A DNA stretch of 55,665 bases from Nostoc sp. DedSLP01. Its GTDB lineage: Bacteria > Cyanobacteriota > Cyanobacteriia > Cyanobacteriales > Nostocaceae. The first letter of the stretch is position 1. Each line of letters starts with the position of its first letter. The stretch is from positions 1 through 55,665 of the forward strand of contig JAVRCJ020000043.1 of NCBI GenBank assembly GCA_034530875.2. The letters are read 5' to 3'. The notes under the pieces are model-generated. The model was given only the letters and a program-made list of their open reading frames with translations. It was not told the origin of the DNA and made no database searches. Made by a program: the position numbers and the translations under genes. Below are positions 14,876 to 31,172 of this stretch, piece by piece.

Positions 14876-16138
14876 TTATTTGTTGAGACGGTAAAGAATT
14901 TCGCCAGCTTTGGGAACAAGCAAAATCCCCTCATGTTCGTGATTTGACCATTCTGTTAGTTGAATGGTAGCCGGATCGCGATAATTCAAGTTATGAGCAG
15001 CACAACGTTCTGGAGAAATACCAGTGGCTAGAGTCACACAAATTCGCGGTTTTTCTCCTTCTATAAAATCAAAAGTACCCATACCTTTCAAGTGCGTACT
15101 ATGTGCTAGCACTCCCGCAGGATATCCTTGGAATTTATCCCATTGTTTCACAAAATAATCGCGCACATGATAACCAATTTCGGCTAATATCTCACCGTGG
15201 GTATAGCTAAATTCAGTAATATGAGGTGCATAAATAATTACTTCTCCGCCATCTGCTACTACTGGCTCTAGTTTGTACATTCCTTTAGCAGCCGTCCAAA
15301 TGTCATCGTACATTTGGGGCATAACTGAAAGTACTTGTTTAAAAGGCTTATTTACATATTTAATATGCACTTTTGCGGATAATTTAGCAGCAGCTTCCCA
15401 GGCCGATTCTGGTCTATCTATATAAAGTCCAGCTAAGCGATTTGTTTTCGGTGCAACTACCATTGCCAAGCAAAGTTTCGGCGTAGGAATCATATTAGCA
15501 GCTCGGTTTATCAAGCGTCGAACTGGCGTGATTCCAAGGGTACCAATAATTTCATAGCAGGTAATTAAAGCTCCTAACCAATGCGATATATTAATTACTT
15601 CCTGACCGCTAATACCTGGGAAAAAATATTTATTTCCCCCAGAAAAGCCGACAACTTCATGGGGAAACACCGGGCCGCAAATAATTATCAAATCGTATTC
15701 TGTTACCAATTTATTTACACGCACATTAACTTCTTGATGTAGCATTCCATTACTAATTTCTGCTATTTCCGCAGCCGAAATTACTCCACAAGAAATAAAA
15801 GTCTCTGGTAAATTCCAAAGATGATTAAAGATGCGAACTCCTTTAAAAATTGTTTCTCTTTCTTCTGCTGTTACCCCGACTAAACGATTGATTTGTTCCT
15901 CATTCATGGGATTATGCGTACCCAGAGCGATTAAAAAATCTAATGCAGCAACCCTGTGATTTAACTCTTGGTGCAGCAGTCGAAACATTTGCGGGATAGG
16001 TGCGGTGCGCGTTCCATCGGGAATTAATACTAGGATGCGCTGTCCGTTAAACTTAGCATCAGCCAAGGCTTGACGAACAAGTTGGGCAACTTCCTCATCT
16101 GCAAGTGTGCCATTATTAGTTACGGCTAATGAATACAT
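14876..16138 (-). CDS. LarA-family (lactate racemase superfamily, nickel-pincer) enzyme; predicted D-mannonate/D-gluconate 2-epimerase
   Basis: LarA motifs PDGTR, ALGTH, PHEVVGFSGGNK, ISH, WTAAK. The substrate is inferred from the adjacent uxuB/uxaC and gntK. Confidence 0.85.
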   Translation of the reverse strand: MYSLAVTNNGTLADEEVAQLVRQALADAKFNGQRILVLIPDGTRTAPIPQMFRLLHQELNHRVAALDFLIALGTHNPMNEEQINRLVGVTAEERETIFKGVRIFNHLWNLPETFISCGVISAAEIAEISNGMLHQEVNVRVNKLVTEYDLIIICGPVFPHEVVGFSGGNKYFFPGISGQEVINISHWLGALITCYEIIGTLGITPVRRLINRAANMIPTPKLCLAMVVAPKTNRLAGLYIDRPESAWEAAAKLSAKVHIKYVNKPFKQVLSVMPQMYDDIWTAAKGMYKLEPVVADGGEVIIYAPHITEFSYTHGEILAEIGYHVRDYFVKQWDKFQGYPAGVLAHSTHLKGMGTFDFIEGEKPRICVTLATGISPERCAAHNLNYRDPATIQLTEWSNHEHEGILLVPKAGEILYRLNK

Positions 16139-16140
16139 TT

Positions 16141-16995
16141 TTAAACTCCGCTGTAGATACTAAACCCGCCGTCTACCGGCACGACTACGCCGTTGACGAA
16201 ACTAGAACCAGAACTGCATAACCAAATCAAAGTACTGAGTAATTCCTGCGGTTCTCCAAAACGTCCGGCTGGGGTATGGTTGATGATTTTTTGCCCGCGA
16301 TCGCTTAAACTTCCATCTGGATTTAGCAGTAAATCTCGATTCTGTTCGCCAATAAAAAAACCTGGGGCGATCGCATTGACTCGCAACCCAGCACCGTATT
16401 TTTGAGCGAGTTCTACAGCAAGCCAACGAGTAAAGTTATCTATTGCTGCTTTCGCCGCCGAGTAACCAACCACTCGACTAATCGCACGGATAGCAGACAT
16501 AGAAGAAATATTCACAATACAACCTTGGGGTTGATTTCTTTCCACCATCGCTTGTCCAAAAACTTGGCTTGGTAGTAAAGTCCCCATCAAGTTGAGACTC
16601 ACAACTTCCTCAAATGCTGTGTGTGGCATATTAAAAAAACTCGCATCAGGAGTAATTGTGGCAGCCGGAATATTACCACCAGCAGCGTTTACCAAGATGT
16701 CTATCTGACCCCAATGCTTCAAAATGGCGTGTTTGGCTATTTCTAGTTGGGAGCGATCGCCAACATCTGCCAGCACGGCCATACTTTCCCCACCATTAGC
16801 AGTAATATCAGCTACCACTGCATCCGCCCGTACTTCATTGCGGCCGAGAACGACTACCCGCGCTCCCGCCAGCGCCAAACCCCGCGCCATCGCCCCACCA
16901 AGCACGCCATAACCGCCGGTAACTACTGCTACCTGGTCTTTGAGGCTAAAAAGTTTATCCAAAATTAAATCTGGTTTATTTAATAAATCTGGCAT
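16141..16995 (-). CDS. uxuB: SDR-family D-mannonate oxidoreductase (fructuronate reductase, Bacillus UxuB type)
   Basis: TGGYGVLG, NAAGGN, NISSM, YSAAK, VNAIAPGFF and C-terminal VDGGFSIYSGV typical of SDR-type UxuB. Adjacent to uxaC. Confidence 0.85.
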   Translation of the reverse strand: MPDLLNKPDLILDKLFSLKDQVAVVTGGYGVLGGAMARGLALAGARVVVLGRNEVRADAVVADITANGGESMAVLADVGDRSQLEIAKHAILKHWGQIDILVNAAGGNIPAATITPDASFFNMPHTAFEEVVSLNLMGTLLPSQVFGQAMVERNQPQGCIVNISSMSAIRAISRVVGYSAAKAAIDNFTRWLAVELAQKYGAGLRVNAIAPGFFIGEQNRDLLLNPDGSLSDRGQKIINHTPAGRFGEPQELLSTLIWLCSSGSSFVNGVVVPVDGGFSIYSGV

Positions 16996-17153: not shown

Positions 17154-18575
17154 TTAGTTCAATTTGTAAGCGTCTTTGGCAAGGTCGTAAGCTAAAGCAT
17201 GAGCCATTTGATAGCCCTCTTCTTCCTCAATTAACCCGCGTATTACTAACCCCGCTAACCAGTTACAAGCTACGCGGCGCCAAACTGTGTGGCGGGCAGG
17301 AATGGAAACAAAAGCCCGCGTATCATCGTTAAAGCCAGCAGTATTATAAAGTCCGGCTGTTTCCATTACTTGATTGAAGTATCGTTCCATTCCATTCATG
17401 CTGTCGTGAAACCACCAAGGCGGCCCCAGCAGTACTGCGGGATAATGACCGGCTAGGGGCGCTAGTTCGCGGCTATAAGTGCTTTCATCCAATCCAAACA
17501 AAATTAAGTGAAAGTCTTTATGATTGCCGTAGGCTGACAATAACGGTTGCAAATTTTCCGTCCACTCTAGTTTCAAGGGAATATCAGCACCTTTATCAGA
17601 TCCAAATCGCTCAAAGACGGCCGGGTTATGGTTACGCATAATACCGCAATGCATTTGCATCACTAGACCATCTTCTACACTCATGCGAGCCATTTCCATG
17701 AACGTATGACCGATAAAACGCTCTGCATCGCCTGGATTTAGCTTGTTGGTTAATGCTCTAGCAAAGATGGCTTCTGCTTCTTGGTCGCTCAGACGGTTAG
17801 TATAAGGTGTCGCTGCGCTATGGTCGGTAGCTGTCGCACCCATTTTTTTAAAGAAAGCTCGACGTTCTTCTAGAGCCTGGACGAAAGCAGCGTAAGTGCT
17901 AATTTCTCGCCCAATAGTACTTTCCAGCTTGGCTAAATTTTCCCGCCAGCCAGGAGTATCTAGATTGACTACTGCATCTGGTCGAAAAGTAGGTCTTATC
18001 TGAGTGAAACCTTCTTGATGTAGGGATTGATGGTACTCAAGGGTGTCACTGGCCGCATCGGTAGTACAAAGAACTTCAATATTAAACTTTTTAAATAAAG
18101 CACGAGGCGAGAATTCAGGTAAAAATAACAGCTTTTGCAAGTAATCGTAGATATATCCAGCATTACGAGAATTTAAAGGCTCGTCCACACCAAAAACGTT
18201 AGTGAGTTCGTCTTTCAGCCACAACCCAGAGGGAGTACCTTGAAATAAGTAAAAATGGTCGGCGAAAAGCTGCCAAATTTTGCGGTGGTCGGTTTCTATC
18301 GGCGAACCATCGCGGCTAGGTATGCCCAAAGCTGATAAAGGTACGCCCCGACTATAGAGCATACGGAAAATGTAATGGTCGGGAATAATCAATAATTCCG
18401 TTGGCGAACCAAAACGCGCTGCGGGATTAGCTAATAAAGCTGGGTCTACGTGTCCGTGGGGACAGACTAGCGGTAGATTAGATATTTTGTCAAAAAATTG
18501 ACGCGCTAGCTGTCTTTGTTCTGGTTCTGGAGCAAAACAGCGATCGCTAGATAAACTCCATTTTTTAGTTAACAT
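17154..18575 (-). CDS. uxaC: Uronate (glucuronate) isomerase
   Basis: PHGH metal motif, PDHYIFRML, LCTTD, PTFRPD, MQMHCG, WWFHDS, GFNDDTRAF, ARH. Confidence 0.95.
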   Translation of the reverse strand: MLTKKWSLSSDRCFAPEPEQRQLARQFFDKISNLPLVCPHGHVDPALLANPAARFGSPTELLIIPDHYIFRMLYSRGVPLSALGIPSRDGSPIETDHRKIWQLFADHFYLFQGTPSGLWLKDELTNVFGVDEPLNSRNAGYIYDYLQKLLFLPEFSPRALFKKFNIEVLCTTDAASDTLEYHQSLHQEGFTQIRPTFRPDAVVNLDTPGWRENLAKLESTIGREISTYAAFVQALEERRAFFKKMGATATDHSAATPYTNRLSDQEAEAIFARALTNKLNPGDAERFIGHTFMEMARMSVEDGLVMQMHCGIMRNHNPAVFERFGSDKGADIPLKLEWTENLQPLLSAYGNHKDFHLILFGLDESTYSRELAPLAGHYPAVLLGPPWWFHDSMNGMERYFNQVMETAGLYNTAGFNDDTRAFVSIPARHTVWRRVACNWLAGLVIRGLIEEEEGYQMAHALAYDLAKDAYKLN

Positions 18576-18600: not shown

Positions 18601-19731
18601 TTACGTACCTGAAAATGGGCATTGGGCATCGGGCATTGGGCATTGACCTTGGGGTACGGGACATTGGTTATTCTTCACCTGCTCCCTGCCTCCCCCACCA
18701 CTCCCTTGCTCGAATGCAGCAGTACTACTGCGCTGTACTAGAAAAGGAGATAAAACGATGTTTTCTACACTTTTGTCTTGTAATAAGTCGAGTAACATTT
18801 GCATAGCCGAGCGACCAATTTCTAACATTGGTTGACAAACTGTTGTCAGCGAAGGGGTTATGTAACGGCAAAGAGCAATATCGTCAAATCCAACTAAACT
18901 TAAATCTTGGGGTACTGAAATATTTAGTTCTCGGCAGGCTAAGAGAGCGCCAACTGCTACCATATCGTTGTAACAAAAGATGCCTGTGACGCCAGCGTTA
19001 AATAGTTGAGGTAGCATTTTTTTGCCAGTATCAACATCGCTGATTCTGATAATTTCTTCATCGCTAATTGCCACCCAATCGCTGTTTTGTGGCAATCCAG
19101 CCTCCCTTAAAGCCGTGCGATATCCTTCTAAACGCAAGTAGTTCGACTGACTGCGATCGCCTACACCCAAGTAACCAATAGCCCTATGTCCCAAACTTAT
19201 CAGATGCTCTACCGCCAATCGACCGCCTAACAAGTCATCTACTGTCACTGTGTGAAATGTTTCAGGTTGATTTTCTGTCTGGCTATTAATCAAAACTATC
19301 GGTACAGCAATTTCTCCTACTTCATTTGTATTATTTTTATTAATTCGCGAATCAGTGACTAATATGCCGTCCACTCTGCGACGATGAAAATTATCAATAG
19401 CTGCTATTTCCTGCTCGAAATCCCGATGTGAAGCAGTTAAGAAAACACTCAAACCTGCCGTTCTCGCTACCTGTTCGATTCCCTCTACCACCTCAGCGTA
19501 AAAGGGATCTGCAATTGAAGTCACAACTACCCCAACAGTATTAGTGCGCTGATTTTGCAAACTTTGAGCGATCGCGTTTGGTACATAGTTCATCTCCCGC
19601 GCTATTTTCTTAATTTCCTCTCTCACCTTCGGGCTAATTAAAGAGTTATCTCGCAAAGCACGTGAAACTGTAGAATGAGAAACGCCTGCCCGACGAGCAA
19701 TATCTTCGATGGAAACTTTTCGTTTCTTCAT
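18601..19731 (-). CDS. LacI-family transcriptional regulator (C-terminal tail derived from STRR repeats)
   Basis: SIEDIARRAGVSHSTVSRAL HTH, YVPNAIAQSL hinge, FCYNDMVAVG, GFDD, LTTV. Confidence 0.95.
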   Translation of the reverse strand: MKKRKVSIEDIARRAGVSHSTVSRALRDNSLISPKVREEIKKIAREMNYVPNAIAQSLQNQRTNTVGVVVTSIADPFYAEVVEGIEQVARTAGLSVFLTASHRDFEQEIAAIDNFHRRRVDGILVTDSRINKNNTNEVGEIAVPIVLINSQTENQPETFHTVTVDDLLGGRLAVEHLISLGHRAIGYLGVGDRSQSNYLRLEGYRTALREAGLPQNSDWVAISDEEIIRISDVDTGKKMLPQLFNAGVTGIFCYNDMVAVGALLACRELNISVPQDLSLVGFDDIALCRYITPSLTTVCQPMLEIGRSAMQMLLDLLQDKSVENIVLSPFLVQRSSTAAFEQGSGGGGREQVKNNQCPVPQGQCPMPDAQCPFSGT

Positions 19732-19745
19732 AATCTTACCATATT

Positions 19746-19765
19746 TAATGCAAACGTGTGCATTA
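19746..19765. promoter_or_regulatory. LacI-type operator upstream of the lacI-uxaC-uxuB-larA operon
   Basis: TAATGCAAACGTGTGCATTA near-palindrome with central CG, 15 bp upstream of the ATG. Matches the sites upstream of miox. Confidence 0.75.
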
Positions 19766-20132
19766 TAATTTTAATTATTAGCAAAGTTGAGCCATCTGTC
19801 AATCTATTTCCCCAGTGACTAAAGACAAATCTGGAGTCAGGATAAAAATGTAACAAAAAGTTAACTAAAAGTTTGTTGTATCAAAAAGAAATATTTCAGT
19901 TGACTTACTTTATTGTTACTCAAGCAAGTTCGCATGATGGCGATCGCAGTAAATATATCGCGTTTGGTAAAAGGCTTATGAATTAGACAAATGCAGAAAA
20001 ATTTTAATTAATAATAGAGCAGATTTCCACGAAATTGTAGTACCCCATCTAAATCTGATATTAAGCTAACACAGCATCCTAACTCTAATTCTGACTCCTG
20101 AATTCTCACTTCTTAACTTTTTTTGCAAAACT

Positions 20133-20633
20133 ATGAACGACAAATCAATGGTTATCCTCGTTATGGGTGTTTCTGGAGCTGGTAAAACCACCATTGGAAA
20201 ACTGCTAGCAGAATCTTTAGGCTGGGAATTTAGCGATGCTGATACTTTTCATTCGCCAGAGAATGTAGAGAAAATGCGGTGCGGTATTCCCCTGACTGAA
20301 GCAGACAGAATACCTTGGTTACAAGATTTGCAAACAGCTATTAAAAACTGGCTGCAAGAAAATAAAAATATGGTTTTGGCGTGTTCGGCTCTCAAAGAAA
20401 GCTATCGGCAATTTCTGGTAGTGGATAGCCAACGCATGAAACTAGTTTACCTTAAAGGCTCTTATCAATTAATTCAAAAGCGCTTGCAAGAGCGTCACAA
20501 TCACTACATGAGCGAGAAACTGTTAGACAGCCAGTTTAATACTCTAGAAGAACCATTAGACACTATATATATAGATGTTATTGAGACACCCAAGGTAATT
20601 GTCCAAAACATTATAACAGCTTTAGGAATTTAG
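20133..20633 (+). CDS. gntK: Gluconokinase (GntK/IdnK type)
   Basis: MGVSGAGKTT, DADTFH...NVEKM..GIPL.EADRIPWL, ACSALK.SYR, LLDSQF.TLEEP. Confidence 0.93.
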   Translation: MNDKSMVILVMGVSGAGKTTIGKLLAESLGWEFSDADTFHSPENVEKMRCGIPLTEADRIPWLQDLQTAIKNWLQENKNMVLACSALKESYRQFLVVDSQRMKLVYLKGSYQLIQKRLQERHNHYMSEKLLDSQFNTLEEPLDTIYIDVIETPKVIVQNIITALGI

Positions 20634-20789: not shown

Positions 20790-21122
20790 GTGTTTCGTAG
20801 ATTAGCTCAACAACATCAGGAAGTAGTCCAAGACTTAGTAATGAACCTGGAAGCTTTATCAATAGCACTTGAGAAACGCGGTTATACTACGTCTTGTTAC
20901 ACGTGCGGCAACCAAATCAAGAGTGCTTCATTTATGGTTAGCCTGGGAGAAAAGCACCTGATTCGATTTATAGTTTCTGATTACGGCATTACTTGGATGG
21001 AAATTTTTGATGACCGCGAATTAATGAAGCTAGAGGGTGCAGAAGCAATCAATCAGTTGCAGGAGTTGTCCGATATTATCAAGTATCCACAGCAACAAAT
21101 TAATATTGTTAGCCATCCATAG
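20790..21122 (+). CDS. DUF1815-like cyanobacterial hypothetical protein
   Basis: MF.RLAQQH...VQDLVMNL.AL...LE.RGY..SCYTCG pattern, GAGGAGG RBS, GTG start. Confidence 0.7.
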   Translation: MFRRLAQQHQEVVQDLVMNLEALSIALEKRGYTTSCYTCGNQIKSASFMVSLGEKHLIRFIVSDYGITWMEIFDDRELMKLEGAEAINQLQELSDIIKYPQQQINIVSHP

Positions 21123-21458: not shown

Positions 21459-21513
21459 AGTTTTGCACACGTGTGCAAAACTAAATATATACAGTCTATG
21501 CACACCTGTGCAT
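21459..21513. promoter_or_regulatory. Tandem LacI-type operators upstream of miox
   Basis: Perfect 24-bp palindrome AGTTTTGCACACGTGTGCAAAACT (21459-21482) and ATGCACACCTGTGCAT (21498-21513). Confidence 0.8.
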
Positions 21514-21569: not shown

Positions 21570-22466
21570 ATGTCTCCAACTCTAAATCGTTCCCTCCCAG
21601 AAGCTGAAAACAATCCATTAAATTCACTAGAAGAATGGGAAGAAGATTTACTTAATCGCTATCCCGATCCCAACAGCATAGTTAAAGAAGGTAAAACTGT
21701 TGAAGGCTACAGGAATTACGAAACGCCTACCAGAGATACAGTCAAAGAATTCTACCGATTAAATCATATTAATCAAACTTATGATTTTGTTCTACAGAAA
21801 AAAGCAGAGTATTTAAAATTTGATAAAAAAGAAATGACCGTTTGGGATGCGGTGGAATTTTTGAATCAATTAGTTGACGATTCAGATCCCGATACAGACC
21901 TAGACCAATTACAGCATTTATTGCAGACATCAGAAGCAATTCGCGCTGATGGTCATCCCGATTGGATGGTGCTGACAGGTTTCTTTCATGATATGGGGAA
22001 AGTACTTTGTTTATTTGGTGAGCCACAATGGGCTACTGTTGGCGATACTTATCCTGTAGGTTGTGCATTTTCAGACAAAATTGTTTACTCAAAATTTTTC
22101 AAAGATAATCCCGATCGCAACAACCCGAAATATAACACTAAATATGGTGTATACGAGCCGAATTGTGGATTGAGCAACGTACATATCTCATGGGGACATG
22201 ATGAGTATTTCTATAGCATGATGAAACCATATTTACCCGAAGCAGCATTGTACATTCTTCGCTATCACTCTTTTTATCCCCAACATCGCGAAAATGCCTA
22301 CATTCATTTAATGGATAAACACGATGAAGAAATGTTTAAATGGGTGAAATTATTCAATCCCTACGATTTGTATTCTAAAAATCCTAATCCTCCTGATTGG
22401 CAAAAACTCAAGCCTTACTACGAGGATTTAGTAGCTAAATATTTACCGCCGACATTAAAGTTCTAA
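21570..22466 (+). CDS. miox: myo-Inositol oxygenase (di-iron HD-domain enzyme)
   Basis: MIOX motifs DDSDPD, HLLQTSEAIR, HDMGK, QWATVGDTYPVGC, SWGHDEY, RYHSFYPQH, FNPYDLYSK. Confidence 0.95.
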   Translation: MSPTLNRSLPEAENNPLNSLEEWEEDLLNRYPDPNSIVKEGKTVEGYRNYETPTRDTVKEFYRLNHINQTYDFVLQKKAEYLKFDKKEMTVWDAVEFLNQLVDDSDPDTDLDQLQHLLQTSEAIRADGHPDWMVLTGFFHDMGKVLCLFGEPQWATVGDTYPVGCAFSDKIVYSKFFKDNPDRNNPKYNTKYGVYEPNCGLSNVHISWGHDEYFYSMMKPYLPEAALYILRYHSFYPQHRENAYIHLMDKHDEEMFKWVKLFNPYDLYSKNPNPPDWQKLKPYYEDLVAKYLPPTLKF

Positions 22467-23143: not shown

Positions 23144-24133
23144 ATGAAAAAAGTTAGTTTATTAGCTAGCATATTAAGTCTTGTTGGGACTGCGGTTGTG
23201 GGTTGTAATAGCGCTCCAAATGATACCGCTGCCAATAATAGCCCTAATACTGCTGTGAACGCGAGTTTAGAGAATAAAGGTTTGCAGACAATTGGTATTA
23301 GCTTGGGCGATTTAGGTAATCCCTTTTATCTAGCAGTGCAGAGGGGAGCCGAACAACAAGCAAAAAAACTTAGTAATGATATCAGAGTCAATACAGTTTC
23401 TAGTGCTTTCGACCTCAACCAACAAACTAACCAAATCGAAAATTTCACAGCGGCGAATACTGATTTAATTATTCTGAGTGCGGTTGACAAAAAAGGAGTG
23501 AAACCAGCAATCGACCAAGCAAGAAGCGCAGGTAGGGTGGTGATTGCGGTAGATTCAGCCGTTGATGCAGATGTGGATGCGATGATTAGCTCCAACAATA
23601 CCCAGGCTGGAGAGATTGCTTGCAAGTATATTGGCGATCGCCTCAACGGTAAAGGCAATGTAGTTATTCTCAACGGTACGCCAATGGACTCCATCAATCA
23701 GCGAGTCAGCGGTTGTAAGACTTCCTTAGCCAAATATCCAGATATCAAAATCGTCTCAGACCAGAACGCCGAAGGGACAAGAGATGGCGGACTGAGAGTC
23801 ATGACTGACGTGCTAACAACCTTCCCCAAAATCGACGCCGTATTTGCCACCAACGACCAAAGCGGTATCGGTGCAGACTTAGCAGCCAGACAAGCAAGAC
23901 GTAAAGAATTTTTTATTGTTGGGGTTGATGGTTCCCCAGATGCAACCAAAGCAATGGAAGACAAAGACGGCTTATTTGTTGCAACTGCCGCCCAAGACCC
24001 CGCAGGCATGGCTCAAAAAGCTGTTGAAGTCGGCAACGAAGTCATCCAAGGCAAAAAACTGAGTAACCCAGAGATTCTGGTTCCAGTCAAATTGGTTACC
24101 CGCGAGAGCCTTGCTAGTTACAAAGGGTGGTAG
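23144..24133 (+). CDS. Sugar ABC transporter substrate-binding lipoprotein 1 (RbsB-like)
   Basis: Lipobox VVGC, NPFY, VIAVD, NNTQAG, VFATND, VGVDG, AAQDP. Confidence 0.9.
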   Translation: MKKVSLLASILSLVGTAVVGCNSAPNDTAANNSPNTAVNASLENKGLQTIGISLGDLGNPFYLAVQRGAEQQAKKLSNDIRVNTVSSAFDLNQQTNQIENFTAANTDLIILSAVDKKGVKPAIDQARSAGRVVIAVDSAVDADVDAMISSNNTQAGEIACKYIGDRLNGKGNVVILNGTPMDSINQRVSGCKTSLAKYPDIKIVSDQNAEGTRDGGLRVMTDVLTTFPKIDAVFATNDQSGIGADLAARQARRKEFFIVGVDGSPDATKAMEDKDGLFVATAAQDPAGMAQKAVEVGNEVIQGKKLSNPEILVPVKLVTRESLASYKGW

Positions 24134-24135
24134 TG

Positions 24136-24265
24136 GGGGCAGGGGACAGGGGGAGATGGGGAAGTGTGGAAAGAGAGGGGGGAAAGATTTCTTCACCATC
24201 CTCCCACAGTTCCCATACCTCCCACACCTCCCACACCTCCCACACTTCCTGCTTGCCCAATGCCC
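24136..24265. repeat. G-rich/C-rich STRR-like intergenic hairpin element
   Basis: GGGGAGATGGGGAAGTGTGG...(CTCCCACAC)n, homologous to 25345-25565. Confidence 0.7.
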
Positions 24266-24302
24266 TGTTTGGCCAATTCAGATTTTTTTAAAGAGGAGAG
24301 AT

Positions 24303-25340
24303 ATGAATTTAAGAAAAATTGCGATCGCAGCTAGTTTAATCAGTCTGGTTGGTGGTGGCGTAATTGGTTGCTCGAATGGTGCGGAAAATGGCAATACTGC
24401 TACTAATCCCGATGCCAACGCACCTGGTAACACTGCTACTAATACTAGCGCCCAGAGTAGCGCAGGTACTGGGAATGGAAAATTGCGATCGGTAGGTTTT
24501 ACCGCCGGCGATTTAAGTAACCCCTTCTTCGTACTGATGGGACAGGAAATTGAAGCCACAGCCAAAAAAATCGGCGGCAATAATGTCAAAACAACTGTAG
24601 TTTCCAGCGCTTACGACCTCAACCAACAAGCCAACCAACTGGAAAACTTTACGGCGGCGAATACTGACGTCATTATTCTTAATGCTGCCGATAAAAGTGG
24701 GATTAAGCCAGCAGTAGAAAAAGCCAAACAAGCCGGCAGAATTGTGATCGCAGTAGATACGGGTGCTGAGGGCGGTGTAGATGCAACGGTTACGACCAAT
24801 AACGTGCAAGCTGGAGAAGTTGCTTGTAAATATATTGCCGATCGCCTCCAAGGTAAAGGTAATGTAGTAATCGTCAACGGGCCTCAAGTAGACTCGGTGA
24901 TTCAGCGAGTTAGTGGTTGCCAAAATGTATTGGCCAAATATCCCGATATCAAAATTCTCTCCAAAGACCAGAATGCAGAAGGTAGCAGAGATGGCGGACT
25001 GAGAGTCATGACAGATTTGCTAACAACCTTCCCTAAGATAGATGCTGTTTTTGCAATTAATGACCCCAGTGGAGTGGGAGCAGAACTAGCAGCTATCCAA
25101 GCACAACGCAAAGATTTCTTTATTGTTGGCGTTGATGGTGCGCCAGAAGCGATTAAGGCGATCGCTAACAAAGATAGTATATATGCAGCAACAGCGACTC
25201 AAAATCCCCGCGGCATGGCAGCCAAAGCAGTCGAAGTTGGCAACGACATTTTGAACGGTAAAAAACCCGCTAACCCCACAATTTTGATTCCAGTCAAGCT
25301 GATTACCAAAGATAACGTCAGCACAGAAAAAGGTTGGTAA
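24303..25340 (+). CDS. Sugar ABC transporter substrate-binding lipoprotein 2 (paralogue of 1)
   Basis: True start ATG 24303 after a GAGGAG RBS (the ORF-track extension to 24111 is repeat translation). Lipobox VIGC. Highly similar to binding protein 1. Confidence 0.9.
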   Translation: MNLRKIAIAASLISLVGGGVIGCSNGAENGNTATNPDANAPGNTATNTSAQSSAGTGNGKLRSVGFTAGDLSNPFFVLMGQEIEATAKKIGGNNVKTTVVSSAYDLNQQANQLENFTAANTDVIILNAADKSGIKPAVEKAKQAGRIVIAVDTGAEGGVDATVTTNNVQAGEVACKYIADRLQGKGNVVIVNGPQVDSVIQRVSGCQNVLAKYPDIKILSKDQNAEGSRDGGLRVMTDLLTTFPKIDAVFAINDPSGVGAELAAIQAQRKDFFIVGVDGAPEAIKAIANKDSIYAATATQNPRGMAAKAVEVGNDILNGKKPANPTILIPVKLITKDNVSTEKGW

Positions 25341-25344
25341 ATGG

Positions 25345-25565
25345 TGACTGGCGATCGGGGACTGGGGATTGGGGGAGATGAAGAGTGTGGGGAGAGTGGG
25401 GAGATGAGGAGATGGGGAAGTGTGTGGAGTCTGGGGAGAGAAGGGGAAAGATTTCTTCCCGATCCTCCCACACCTCCCACACTTCTCAATGCCCCATAGC
25501 CAATCCCCAGTCCTCAGTCCCCAGTCCCCAGTCCCCAATCCCCAGTCCCCAGTCCCCAGTCCCCA
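25345..25565. repeat. STRR-rich intergenic element including (CCCCAGT/CCCCAAT)n
   Basis: Heptamer tandem arrays in inverted arrangement. Confidence 0.8.
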
Positions 25566-25584
25566 TTATTTTTAGGAGTTACTC

Positions 25585-27138
25585 GTGACCACAAGTATTG
25601 AAACCTCCTTTCCTGAAGCGCCAACTGCCGCCCCTGTACTGGAAATGCAAGGGATTGGCAAACGATTTCATGGCGTACCTGCTTTGCAAAATGTGAACCT
25701 GACCATTTATCCGGGAGAAGTTCACGCACTCATGGGGGAAAACGGAGCAGGTAAAAGCACATTGATGAAAATCCTCGCCGGGGCTTACATTGCCGATGAA
25801 GGCGAGATTCGCATCAATGGTACTCCCGTGAAAATTAGCGATCCGGCTTCAGCACGCCAAGCAGGGATTAATCTGATTTATCAAGAACTGAACGTTGCAC
25901 CCAACTTAACCGTTACCGAAAATATTTTCATGGGTAGCGAGTTACAGCGGGGTCAGTTATTAGACCGCAAAGCTATGGAGGACGAGGCACAGCTAGTACT
26001 TCAAAGCTTGGGAGCAAGTTTTACACCCAATACCATAGTTGGTACTTTATCCATTGCCGAACAGCAACAGGTAGAAATTGCCAGGGCCCTGAAAGACAAC
26101 AGTCGGGTTTTGGTGATGGATGAGCCGACAGCAGCCTTATCTGACCGCGAGACTGAGCGTTTGTTTCAAGTTATTCGCAGACTGCGAGATGATGGCATTG
26201 CCATTATCTACATCAGTCACCGCATGGAAGAAATATATGCATTGGCTGACCGGATTAGCGTGCTACGCGACGGTCAATATATCGGCAGTCTTACAAGGGA
26301 GGAGATTTCTGCCCAGCGATTAGTGCAGATGATGGTCGGTCGTTCGATGCAAGACTTTTACGAACATCAACGCCAAACCAATCCCGGCCCGGTGGTGTTG
26401 GAAGTTAGAAATATCAGCGACGGACGCAAGATTGAACCGGCTAGTTTTCAAATTCGGGCTGGTGAGGTACTCGGTTTAGCAGGACTGGTGGGTGCTGGAC
26501 GCACAGAAGTATGTCGGCTGATTTTTGGTGCCGATCGCAAAGCCAGTGGCGAAGTATTCTTGAATGGCGTGAAACTCAATATTAATAGCCCCAGCGATGC
26601 CATTGCTGCTGGTATCGGCTATGTCCCAGAAGACCGCAAAGACCAAGGTTTATTTTTGGAAATGAGTTCCCGCAAGAATATTGCCCTGAACACGCTCAAA
26701 CAGGATGCTAAGGCAGGGGTTGTCAACTGGGGTTCAGTCAATCAGTTGGCGACGGAAGCGGTGCAAAACTTCAATATCCGACTGGCTAATTTGGAAATTA
26801 GAGCCGTGGATCTTTCTGGTGGGAACCAGCAAAAACTACTATTGGCGCGTTGGCTAGCAATTAAACCCAGAGTCTTAATGCTGGATGAGCCGACACGCGG
26901 CGTAGATATCGGCGCTAAGAGCGAGATTTACCGGATTATTAGCGAATTAGCAGCCCAAGGCGTCGCTATTTTAATGGTTTCCAGCGAATTACCGGAAGTG
27001 GTCGGAATGAGCGATCGCGTTTTGGTAATGCGAGAAGGACGGCTAGTGGGCGAACTTGACGACAGTCCCGGTAAAGAAATTACCCAAGAAAAGATTATGC
27101 ATTATGGAACAGGAGCATCGGGAGTAGCAGAATCATGA
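25585..27138 (+). CDS. Sugar ABC transporter ATP-binding protein (RbsA-like, two NBDs)
   Basis: [51 protein letters not shown]. Confidence 0.95.
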
Positions 27139-28136
27139 GTCAAACAGTCAGACCTACCAATAGAAATAAAGTTACCAACAATCCAAACGCGCGATCGCCC
27201 AGATCCCTCGCCAGCTTTCTGGAAGTTGCAGGTATTTTACCAATCCTCGTACTTATCTGTATCTTATTTACCTTCCTTTCATCCAACTTCCTCACACCTG
27301 GTAACCTCGTCAATATCTTACGGCAGGCATCTATTAACATTGTCCTAGCCACAGGCATGACCTTCGTGATTCTCACCGGAGGTATTGATTTGTCTGTAGG
27401 GTCAATATTGGCTGTTTCTGCTGTAGTTGCCTTGATAGTATCGCTGCTTCCGGCTATAGGTTGGGCGGCTTTGCCTGCCGGCTTATTAGCAGGATTGCTT
27501 TTAGGCTTAGTCAACGGCGCTTTGATTACCTTTTTGGATGTGCCGCCTTTTATTGTCACATTGGGTTCGCTGACTGCTTTGCGCGGTACTGCTTATTTGA
27601 TTGCCAAGGGAACAACAGTTATTAACCGCGACATCAATTTTGCTTGGATTGGTAATAGCTATATCGGTCCTTTTCCCTGGTTGGTAATTATTGCCTTACT
27701 GGCTGTAGCGGTTAGCTGGTTTGTACTGCGGCAGACTGTTTTAGGAGTGCAAATCTACGCTGTAGGAGGTAACGAACGGGCAGCAAGATTAACTGGAATT
27801 AAAGTTAATCGCGTGCTGCTATTTGTTTATGGCGTGAGTGGATTGCTAGCAGGGTTGGCAGGAGTTATGAGTGCCAGCCGTCTTTATAGTGCTAGCGGTT
27901 TATTGGGTCAAGGTTACGAACTAGATGCGATCGCTGCTGTAATTTTAGGTGGCACTAGTTTTACAGGTGGGATTGGCACAATTGGCGGTACTCTTCTCGG
28001 TGCGTTAATCATTGCTGTTCTCAACAATGGTCTAACTCTGTTAAACATGTCCTTCTTCTGGCAACTAGTTGTGAAGGGACTAGTAATTATCTTTGCCGTA
28101 ATGATTGACCGTCTCCGCAGACGTTCCAGACGCTAA
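27135..28136 (+). CDS. Sugar ABC transporter permease (RbsC-like)
   Basis: [55 protein letters not shown]. Confidence 0.95.
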
Positions 28137-28359
28137 AAAGATAAAAGTTAAAAGTAAGAATTCACGAGTCAGAATAGTAATTTAGATATCTAAACATTAT
28201 TAATTATCAATTTTTGATTCTGAATTCTTACCTAATTAATTAAAATTTACTTAATTAATCGCTAATAAAATACTATAAACCTCTGCGTACCTCTGCGCTT
28301 GACTCTGCGCACCTTTGCGTTTAAAGATTATTTTCACTTTCAAAACTCAAAAAATTAAT

Positions 28360-29403
28360 ATGAAAATTATCAACACTGCTCTTTGCGGTTATGGATCCTC
28401 AGGAAAGATATTTCACGCACCATTTATAAATCTGCATTCTGGATTTAAATTAATAGGTGCTTGGGAAAGAAGTAAAAAGGTGATACAGGAAGATTATCCC
28501 GATACCAAAAGCTATCCTTCATTAGAAGCTTTGCTAGCAGATGAGCAAGTTGAATTAGTAGTAGTAAATACGCCAACTTATACTCATTACGAATATGCAA
28601 AACAGGCTTTACTTGCAAATAAACATCTAATAGTAGAAAAAGCATTTACTACAACAGTAGAAGAAGCCAAAGAACTTAAAGAATTAGCCGAAACCAAGCA
28701 AAAAAAATTATCTGTATATCAAAATCGTAGGTGGGACAGCGATTTTCAAACAGTAAAAAAAATTGTTCAATTAGACTTATTAGGAAATATTATTGAAGCA
28801 GAATTTCATTTTGAACGATACAAACCAACGCTCAGCCTTAAACAACATGTAGAAGTTCCCGGCCCTGGTGCAGGACTGATTAAAGATTTAGGGCCGCACT
28901 TAATAGACCAAGCTTTGCATTTATTTGGGATGCCTAATGCTGTTTTTGCAGACATGCGAATCACGAGAGCAGCGTCACAGATAGATGATTATTTTGAGTT
29001 GATACTTTACTACGAAAAATTGCGTGTCAAGTTGAAAGCTAGTTTTCTAGTGCGCGAACCTGCGCCGTCGTACATCATACATGGAACAAAAGGTTCTTTT
29101 CTCAAAAGCAGGGCTGATGGACAAGAAGACAAATTAAAAGCTGGTATGAAGCCTAACACTGATGACTGGTACACAGAACCGGAAAGTGAATATGGCTTGT
29201 TACACACAGAAAAAGACGGGAAAGTAATTCGAGAAAAAGTCAAAAGCTCGCAGGGTAGTTATTTAGGCTACTACGATGCAATCTATAAAGCAATTGCCGA
29301 CCGCCAGCCAATTCCCGTAACTGCCGAAGACGGAATTAATGTAATGCAAATTATAGAGGCAGCTATTAAAAGCAGCAACGAGCAAAGAGTAATAGCAGTT
29401 TGA
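28360..29403 (+). CDS. Gfo/Idh/MocA oxidoreductase, YdgJ/IolW (scyllo-inositol dehydrogenase)-like
   Basis: GYGSSG.IFHAP, VNTP..TH, VEKAF, YQNRRWDSDF, G.I.DLGPHLIDQ. ATG 28360 preferred over TTG 28315. Confidence 0.85.
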   Translation: MKIINTALCGYGSSGKIFHAPFINLHSGFKLIGAWERSKKVIQEDYPDTKSYPSLEALLADEQVELVVVNTPTYTHYEYAKQALLANKHLIVEKAFTTTVEEAKELKELAETKQKKLSVYQNRRWDSDFQTVKKIVQLDLLGNIIEAEFHFERYKPTLSLKQHVEVPGPGAGLIKDLGPHLIDQALHLFGMPNAVFADMRITRAASQIDDYFELILYYEKLRVKLKASFLVREPAPSYIIHGTKGSFLKSRADGQEDKLKAGMKPNTDDWYTEPESEYGLLHTEKDGKVIREKVKSSQGSYLGYYDAIYKAIADRQPIPVTAEDGINVMQIIEAAIKSSNEQRVIAV

Positions 29404-29416
29404 AGAAAAATTCACC

Positions 29417-29464
29417 AATTCAGAATGGGCTACGCCCCGCTACGCTAACAGGAGTCAGAATTCA
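29417..29464. repeat. SDR-type small dispersed repeat (GGGCTACGCCCCGCTACGCTAAC core)
   Basis: 48 bp identical (inverted) to 46144-46191. Variant core at 39107-39129. Confidence 0.8.
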
Positions 29465-29555
29465 CAAATTTATCTGTACGTTAATTGATGGTTTTGGCTT
29501 TTAACTCCTGAATTATGGCTCCTGGCCACAGATTTTCTATACCATATTACAGCCA

Positions 29556-31172
29556 ATGCTGAAAAATATTTTGTACAGTTTTCCACTGCTTTTATTGTTA
29601 TCCCCAGCAGTTTGGGCAACTCCTTTAGATGATAATTCAAATACCCCAGATGCTAACTTCGGTACTTTACAGGGACAAGTTACCTCAGTCTCTCAGTTTT
29701 CCGATGTCCAGCCGAGTGATTGGGCTTTTCAAGCACTGCAATCGCTGGTAGAACGCTACGGTTGCATTGCAGGTTATCCCAATTCCACCTTTCGCGGTAA
29801 CCGTGCTTTAACCCGTTACGAATTTGCCGCAGGTTTAAATGCTTGTTTGGATCGGGTTAATGAGTTAATTGCCACAGCTACCGGCGATTTAATTAATAAG
29901 GAAGATTTGGCAGTGCTGCAAAAGTTGCAAGAAGAATTTGCAGCAGAACTGGCAACTCTGCGGGGACGGGTGGATAGCTTAGAGGCGCGTAACGCCACAT
30001 TAGAGGCGCAGCAGTTTTCCACAACTACCAGGTTGAACGCTCAAATTATTACTGCTGTTACCGACACCTTTGGCGACAGAGTGGGAGGGGAACGCGATGA
30101 ATCCAACGCCATATTTGCGACTCGCGGCCGTCTGAACTTAGAGAGTAGTTTCACAGGCAAAGATATGTTGCGAGTGCGTCTGGAGTTTGGTAACTTTGCC
30201 AATCCCGATGGCTCAAGCCGAATTGCAGTAGCCAGCGGTACGGGAATGACGCGGCTCAACTTTGATTACGACAGCAACAATACACTCACCATTCCCCACA
30301 TTCGTTACTACTTCCCGGTGAGTGATTCCCTTTCCTTCGTTGTCGGCCCTACAGGTATTGGCTACAACGACATCACAGACAACGTAACCCCTGCTACTAT
30401 TGGCGATGATGGCAACGGCATTCCTTCGCTATTTGGTAAGAACAGTTTTCTCTTCGAGCGCGGTGGTGGTGGTGCAGCCGTCAACTGGAGTATCAGCAAA
30501 GACTTGGTTCTAACTCTGGGCTATTTAGCAAATACTCCCAACGAAACAACACAAAGCAGTGGGTTATTTAATGGCGGCTACAATGCTCTTGCCCATCTGG
30601 TGTATTACGGCAAACAAGGAGCAATTGGTGTCGCTTACTCTCATAGCTACAATCCTCCTGGAACTGTTAACGTTACAGGCTCAAGAGGTAGCGTCTTGTC
30701 GATTGCTCCCTTTGGCAACAACATTGCTACTTCCAACAGTATTATTGGCGTCCAAGGATACTATCGGTTTTCCCCAAACTTCCAAATCCACGGTTGGGGT
30801 GGATATATAACGGCAACTGCTGAGAGTTCTGGTTTGAGTGATATTTCTAATGGTAGGGGTGGAACAGATTCTCTGTTTGTGAACAATGGCGATAATGCTA
30901 ATGCCTGGTTTGGGGCGGTTGGCTTGTCCTTTCCAGATGTGGGAGGTAAAGGCAATCTGCCAGGAATTCTCGTTGGTTTGCCACCGCGTATATATAACAG
31001 TGATGTCCGTGAAGAAGCGGACAACGCTTACCACATCGAAGCATTCTATCGCTTACGAATGAATGACCACATCTCTGTAACTCCTGGTTTTTGGGTGATT
31101 GTCAACCCCGAAAACAATAGCGAAAATGATACTCAATATGTAGGAGTACTTCGCACAACATTCGATTTTTAA
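29556..31172 (+). CDS. Cyanobacterial SLH-domain outer-membrane porin (OprB/carbohydrate-selective type)
   Basis: VTSVSQFSDVQPSDWAFQALQSLVERYGC, RYEFAAGL, coiled coil, FSTTTRL, C-terminal LRTTFDF. Confidence 0.93.
   Translation: MLKNILYSFPLLLLLSPAVWATPLDDNSNTPDANFGTLQGQVTSVSQFSDVQPSDWAFQALQSLVERYGCIAGYPNSTFRGNRALTRYEFAAGLNACLDRVNELIATATGDLINKEDLAVLQKLQEEFAAELATLRGRVDSLEARNATLEAQQFSTTTRLNAQIITAVTDTFGDRVGGERDESNAIFATRGRLNLESSFTGKDMLRVRLEFGNFANPDGSSRIAVASGTGMTRLNFDYDSNNTLTIPHIRYYFPVSDSLSFVVGPTGIGYNDITDNVTPATIGDDGNGIPSLFGKNSFLFERGGGGAAVNWSISKDLVLTLGYLANTPNETTQSSGLFNGGYNALAHLVYYGKQGAIGVAYSHSYNPPGTVNVTGSRGSVLSIAPFGNNIATSNSIIGVQGYYRFSPNFQIHGWGGYITATAESSGLSDISNGRGGTDSLFVNNGDNANAWFGAVGLSFPDVGGKGNLPGILVGLPPRIYNSDVREEADNAYHIEAFYRLRMNDHISVTPGFWVIVNPENNSENDTQYVGVLRTTFDF

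Follow-up and report, generated by a model that had tools for sequence, protein, structure and literature searches.

HrmA of Nostoc as a likely nickel-pincer-dependent D-mannonate/D-gluconate 2-epimerase encoded in the hrm locus

The hrmA gene of Nostoc sp. DedSLP01 encodes a group 19 LarA protein which likely binds the nickel-pincer nucleotide (NPN) and likely converts D-mannonate to D-gluconate by inversion at C2, thereby closing a route from inositol to 6-phosphogluconate; we rate this reading at roughly 0.7. It builds on the residues, signature, gene neighbours, absences and larB, larC and larE genes observed in the window (the whole stretch of 55,665 nucleotides that was analysed) and in the host genome, and it predicts the cofactor loading, the substrate and the flux. 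The gene cluster is the hrm locus, with hrmE, hrmK, hrmR, hrmI, hrmU and hrmA in the published order together with sugar transport genes (Table 1). The enzyme call is well supported, but the function has already been predicted in print for an orthologue 86% identical over 418 amino acids (ACC83654.1, HrmA of N. punctiforme ATCC 29133 / PCC 73102); the resemblance of HrmA to LarA and the locus itself have also been published. Since neither the enzyme type nor the gluconate exit route nor the locus is new, what is gained is a connection between known elements rather than a system of a new type.

That connection joins two records. The gene has been linked to plant symbiosis since 1997 and was still labelled unknown in a figure legend of a 2018 genome comparison, the supplement of which describes HrmA (ACC83654) as resembling nickel-dependent lactate racemase (COG3875, DUF2088) (PMC5987646). 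The enzymology literature places Npun_F5335 in LarAH group 19 as a putative gluconate 2-epimerase (G2E/G2E2), without the name hrmA in the relevant rows (Desguin 2020, PMC7583248), and by visual comparison ACC83654.1 has the same sequence as the stretch of Npun_F5335 given in Dataset S2 of that study. A limited literature search, to which subscription papers and supplements may add the link, found no paper in which hrmA is identified as a gluconate 2-epimerase or in which hormogonium repression is said to require nickel. Joining the symbiosis and enzymology records gives the gene a defined reaction and a defined cofactor, both predicted, and a testable link between a symbiosis gene and nickel chemistry.

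Table 1. Features of the hrm locus in the window, in order of position
Feature	Position	Strand	Assignment and evidence
hrmA	14876..16138	-	LarA superfamily, group 19 (GntE1-type), likely NPN-dependent D-mannonate/D-gluconate 2-epimerase; ATG start, uninterrupted, 420 aa
hrmU	16141..16995	-	SDR-type D-mannonate oxidoreductase (fructuronate reductase), 284 aa; NF006132 389 bits (cut-off 281)
hrmI	17154..18575	-	Uronate isomerase UxaC, 473 aa; PF02614; NF002794 498 bits (cut-off 387)
hrmR	18601..19731	-	LacI/GalR-family repressor; PF00356 and PF13377; named by gene order in PMC5987646
Operator candidate before hrmR	19749..19762		Palindromic, LacI-type; same site in 8 of 8 Nostocaceae loci covering the region
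Promoter candidate	19774..19802	-	Sigma-70-like match (11/12) just upstream of the operator, facing hrmR-hrmI-hrmU-hrmA
hrmK	20133..20633	+	GntK/IdnK-type gluconokinase, 166 aa; TIGR01313 159.6 bits (cut-off 113.75)
DUF1815 protein	20790..21122	+	unk2 of the hrm locus; Pfam; named in the supplement of PMC5987646
Two operator candidates before hrmE	21464-21477, 21499-21512		Pair present in 7 of 7 Nostocaceae loci including hrmE
hrmE	21570..22466	+	myo-Inositol oxygenase homologue, 298 aa; PF05153 368.6 bits
Sugar ABC transporter	23144..28136	+	Two binding proteins, ATPase and permease; by position the frtA1A2BC fructose transporter (PMC5987646)
mviM and porin	28315..31172	+	Gfo/Idh/MocA oxidoreductase (mviM) and porin (oprB by position); naming from PMC5987646

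HrmA and its place among LarA proteins

Judged from its sequence, the hrmA product belongs to the LarA superfamily by its Lar_N domain (PF09861, 85.3 bits; cut-off 23.3), its fold and its catalytic and cofactor residues. The first-pass annotation had described the LarA motifs as intact, which they are: DGTR at 41-44, GTH at 73-75, PHE at 159-161, SGGNK at 166-170, HW at 186-187 and AKGMYK at 284-289. All seven key residues are present, at positions verified against the 4NAR alignment and the residue table of PMC7583248; D41, H75, H160 and K285 are equivalent to the catalytic D72, H108, H174 and K298 of LarA, and R44, K170 and H186 to its cofactor-binding R75, K184 and H200. By family chemistry, NPN would be tethered at K170 with its nickel held by H186, while H75 and H160 would serve as acid and base and the cofactor would take and then return the C2 hydride.

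The best PDB match by sequence was 4NAR (E 2.5e-63), against E values of 6.6e-11 to 4e-4 for lactate and malate racemases. The predicted model likewise returned 4NAR first in Foldseek (E 7e-31), with 9EIA, 7S91 and 6C1W as the other top matches; this AlphaFold model has a mean pLDDT of 67, its residues 280-356 and C-terminal domain are poorly predicted, and its distal substrate pocket is too weak to judge. 4NAR is GntE2 of T. maritima (LarAH20, TM0442), assayed as an NPN-dependent D-gluconate 2-epimerase (PMC7583248), which has the same catalytic residues as HrmA but is 31% identical to it. The lactate racemase LarA (5HUQ, 2YJG) shares the fold and the NPN-binding and catalytic residues, but is 15-19% identical and has another substrate pocket, and the window gene has no linked lar operon.

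Assignment to group 19 rests on the 86% identity to a listed member and on signature residues. Counted by eye against the table of PMC7583248, the 20-position signature agrees with that of Npun_F5335 at all 20 positions, N. punctiforme HrmA being itself just a predicted epimerase, with GntE1 (LarAH19) of Corynebacterium glutamicum at 18, with GntE2 at 11 and with LarA at 8. The group 19 features (EV loop, W in helix 11 and the A-H-S-T-H region) are present, and the group 20 signature of GntE2 (ES, W-T-G-K, N-A-A-V-I-N) is matched at only those 11 positions. The residues usual in GntE proteins, E, V, A and H (PMC11770544), appear as E161, V162, A345 and H346. GntE1 and GntE2 both epimerise mannonate with NPN (PMC7583248), and GntE1 falls in the same LarAH group as Npun_F5335. 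The PDB and fold matches and the signature thus support the earlier call of a GntE-type sugar-acid 2-epimerase, not a lactate racemase, as the predicted class. Against our reading, the protein passed none of the NCBIfam LarA models, the best being NF052594 (LarAH group 18) with 191.7 bits against a cut-off of 500.

Comparison with 20 Nostocaceae orthologues gave dN/dS values of 0.059-0.105 with no stops, which indicates that hrmA is under purifying selection. One member of the genus carries a frameshift-split hrmA (G005:C3:1993814-1995066) beside intact MIOX and uxaC matches, an observation which counts against our reading. A single soil metatranscriptome (n=1) matched 5% of words on scattered contigs and has no bearing on hrmA expression.

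The proposed route and its alternatives

As the first-pass annotation had stated, hrmA starts 2 bp past the stop of a uxuB-type gene: hrmU ends at 16141, and the SDR that it encodes passes NF006132 (Table 1). From the identities of the neighbours, HrmE would convert myo-inositol and O2 to D-glucuronate, HrmI would convert this to D-fructuronate, HrmU would reduce the latter to D-mannonate, and HrmK would phosphorylate D-gluconate to 6-phosphogluconate, which Gnd and the oxidative pentose phosphate pathway would then use. HrmA would supply the missing D-mannonate to D-gluconate step by NPN-bound, proton-coupled hydride transfer at C2, and the whole route would be repressed by HrmR. A gnd gene is present on another contig of the host genome, and hrmK is the sole strong gluconokinase copy.

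The host genome is 99.8% complete, and no uxuA, uxaE or altronate dehydratase gene was found in it. A hidden mannonate dehydratase of the enolase family was considered and rejected, as the two strong matches were a dipeptide epimerase-like protein, which adjoins another gene pair, and MenC; a third enolase-superfamily match was weak (E 2.4e-4) and below cut-off. With these three enzymes not found and the strong enolase-superfamily matches so accounted for, mannonate is left without another evident exit. The first-pass annotation had gone further and described the epimerase as replacing uxuA. Such a historical replacement is not supported: none of the 60 relatives yielded a uxuA gene, and the SDR-epimerase pair also occurs in other phyla.

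For Thermotoga, a route that takes mannonate by way of gluconate to 6-phosphogluconate was put forward in 2012 (cited in PMC6978723), and the uxaE-reductase-gntE-gntK set there has the same proposed mannonate exit (PMC7583248, PMC6978723). Thermotoga differs in that UxaE and UxuA are also present, as seen when its genome served as a search control, and in its starting material, pectin uronates, where Nostoc combines the block with a MIOX homologue. The closest known system is the hormogonium-regulating (hrm) locus of N. punctiforme, reported as hrmE (inositol oxygenase), hrmK, hrmR, hrmI, hrmU and hrmA (PMC5987646). The window shares with it the order hrmE-DUF1815-hrmK and hrmR-hrmI-hrmU-hrmA, the linked sugar transporter, mviM and the porin, but has neither a glcP permease ORF in the stretch that separates mviM from the ABC permease (28136-29556) nor a SnoaL-like unk1 ORF of at least 90 aa between DUF1815 and hrmE. 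Besides, mviM appears intact in the window, whereas in N. punctiforme it is reported as a pseudogene.

HrmR has been reported to bind the hrmR and hrmE promoters (PMC5987646, PMC8461463), and the candidate palindromes sit at these same two promoters. The palindrome, with core TGCACACGTGTGCA, has exactly three pattern matches in the 8.57 Mb genome, one before hrmR and two before hrmE; any chance estimate is circular because the pattern was taken from the window, and only the conservation in other loci (Table 1) counts. Promoter and terminator scans gave no excess over shuffled sequence. The sigma-70-like candidate facing hrmR is the best of 15 matches, where shuffles average 21, and its position and score are suggestive only.

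The locus has been proposed as signal-making and not catabolic (PMC5987646), which counts against our reading as a carbon route. It is possible, though we would not favour it, that the reaction runs as proposed while the main role of the locus is to produce or clear a signal sugar acid that controls HrmR and hormogonium repression, and that it carries little carbon flux. Such a role agrees with the published model of an HRF-induced metabolite inhibitor, with the failure of a transposon mutant with reduced hrmUA expression to repress hormogonia in host extract, a phenotype known for N. punctiforme, and with the restriction of the locus to one Nostoc clade and its sister (PMC5987646). Set against it are the SDR-epimerase-gnd arrangement in heterotrophic phyla without hormogonia and the end of the route in a central metabolite. 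A signalling role would leave the enzyme call untouched and is a rival of the catabolic side of our reading only. Also against our reading, the linked transporter has been described as a fructose transporter (PMC5987646), so that inositol uptake is a presumption.

GntE1 has a high KM for mannonate (120 mM), and its authors suspect a different native substrate (PMC7583248), which counts against our reading of mannonate as the likely substrate of HrmA. Together with the epimerisation of 6-phosphomannonate in L. suebicus extracts, where a kinase-first route was described with the epimerase gene unidentified (PMC6978723), this raises the less probable alternative that HrmA keeps the same cofactor and chemistry but acts in another order or on another substrate: on 6-phosphomannonate after HrmK, or on a different hexonate, uronate or aldarate such as one arising from galacturonate. 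The distal pocket, S-T-H in group 19 against V-I-N in GntE2, points the same way, as do two reported findings, substitutions in the lid of HrmK that are specific to symbiotic strains and the binding of galacturonate by HrmR in vitro (PMC5987646). However, free mannonate is a substrate of GntE1, GntE2 and LarAH15 (PMC7583248, PMC11770544), HrmK passes the gluconokinase model and gntK predates the pathway (see below), and a galacturonate branch would have no evident continuation in a host genome where UxaE and altronate dehydratase were not found.

If HrmA is the mannonate/gluconate epimerase that we propose, a broader but still doubtful interpretation is that the hrm locus encodes a nickel-pincer-dependent route which begins with an oxygenase and leads from plant myo-inositol to 6-phosphogluconate. 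It would have been put together from MIOX, a resident gluconokinase and a uronate-epimerase block taken from elsewhere, and host repression of hormogonia in symbiotic Nostoc would thereby depend on nickel and larBCE. Were this true, the hrmUA phenotype would be reproduced by larC or larE mutants or by nickel starvation, and a single cofactor pool would serve HrmA and ArgZ/AgrE. Our main reading, for its part, would account for the way in which symbiotic Nostoc might channel host inositol or glucuronate to the pathway supplying reductant in the dark.

Cofactor supply and other candidate users of larBCE

The search suggested in the first-pass annotation for larB, larC and larE recovered all three over cut-off, with no stops, on three other contigs of the host genome, and HrmA would draw on an NPN supply already present in cyanobacteria. 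Among the 60 relatives, larC was found in 58, namely in 28 of the 29 without the epimerase and in all but one of the 31 with hrmA. The loss of larC in that sole hrmA-bearing exception (G006) is only apparent, as the gene breaks at an assembly N.

Outside the phylum, larC was matched in 36 of the first 50 of 71 genomes carrying a close homologue. It was not matched in the other 14, whose homologues keep all seven key residues, which counts against our reading and is a result against strict coupling to larBCE. Most of the 14 are bins of unknown completeness, and one (L049, G320) is a single 6.8-Mb chromosome record; scavenging or incomplete bins may account for them. These genomes, and the lack of linkage between larBCE and hrmA in the host genome, would fit a protein working without NPN or with another cofactor, an alternative that we consider very improbable: every assayed LarA homologue required NPN (PMC7583248), all 71 homologues from non-cyanobacterial loci retain the seven key residues, larC accompanies hrmA in the relatives as described, and three betaproteobacterial loci carry larB/E/C beside the epimerase gene. 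Least credible of all, and rejected, is a lactate racemase, as suggested by the name 'lactate racemase domain-containing protein' given to relatives in databases, since the protein scores 77.9 bits with NF033504 (cut-off 460), and has E-V and W-T in place of the F-F and Y-Q of the LarA pocket, and since the assayed group 19 and 20 enzymes showed no lactate racemase activity (PMC7583248).

The first-pass annotation had also offered HrmA as a concrete client for the cyanobacterial larBCE genes. HrmA is rejected as the main client, as larC is present in nearly all of the epimerase-free relatives, and ArgZ/AgrE passes the TIGR00300 cut-off in 57 of the 60 relatives, a distribution near to that of larC. 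ArgZ/AgrE, a protein unrelated to HrmA, is the far more widespread candidate user of larBCE products and the better candidate for the main client, with HrmA as an added client in one lineage. The host copy, of 703 aa (L107:652-2763; contig C36 of genome G000), passes NF052231 and TIGR00300 and has Alr4995 as its top PDB match, and the model for its C-terminal part bears the NCBI name 'ornithine cyclodeaminase, nickel-pincer nucleotide-dependent'; an ornithine cyclodeaminase has been reported to use the nickel-pincer dinucleotide form NPAD (cited in PMC13524815). In three relatives (G022, G037 and G051) and the control S. elongatus, larC is present with no TIGR00300 and no HrmA match, which may leave room for further nickel-pincer clients.

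Distribution and origin of the pathway

The hrmA, MIOX and uxaC genes share one distribution: each is present in an identical set of 31 among the 36 genomes of the genus, and each was found in none of the 24 genomes from other genera. The 60 relatives are kin and not independent samples, so these counts are descriptive and do not amount to a statistical test. One of the uxaC copies in genomes with the pathway is broken (G024). A genome without hrmA and MIOX retains a 5' uxaC remnant near gntK (G022:C40:14858-15178), a trace of pathway loss. The gntK gene is over cut-off in 46 of the 60 relatives, comprising all 36 of the genus, the five without hrmA included, and 10 of the 24 from other genera; its presence in genus members and other genera lacking hrmA indicates that gntK predates the pathway.

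LarA homologues have been counted in 5 of 75 cyanobacteria (PMC11770544). In a sample of 250 further genomes of the phylum, Lar_N matched nine, and of the eight loci compared only those in G023 and G215 were HrmA-like. Apart from these, weak and apparently fragmentary distant LarA matches were seen in small cyanobacterial genomes (L113, L114 and L115 in G037, G158 and G182), and a GC-rich distant homologue of 547 aa, not HrmA-like, is flanked by a HAD-like gene and by one encoding an SDR-like domain (L109:568-2211, G081).

Of the named close homologues outside Nostocaceae, which are 54-70% identical, most come from Chloroflexota and Acidobacteriota. Among the 71 non-cyanobacterial loci, a uxuB-type SDR lies within 7 kb of the epimerase gene in 47 and directly upstream in 27 of the 68 with enough flank. 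The neighbour cluster represented by 6-phosphogluconate dehydrogenase occurs in 31 and that represented by UxaE in 22, larB/E/C share the locus in three, and MIOX is found in none. No UxuA was found among the 18 of 45 listed neighbour clusters scanned with Pfam. UxuA-family matches occur in 16 of the first 50 of these genomes, so the epimerase does not strictly exclude UxuA.

In a quick tree of 81 rows, the Nostocaceae proteins form a single clade with support of 100; their placement next to Chloroflexia and Thermomicrobiales is weak (83). The uronate-epimerase block was likely acquired from another phylum and would have been set beside the resident gntK; the grouping with Chloroflexia is only 83% supported, and no donor is claimed.

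Two further arrangements were seen outside the cyanobacteria. In the betaproteobacterial loci L074, L088 and L099, larB, larE and larC are divergent from the group 19 epimerase gene, and in an Anaerolineales bin a gluconokinase-like domain is fused to 6-phosphogluconate dehydrogenase directly after the epimerase (L083:11272-13218).
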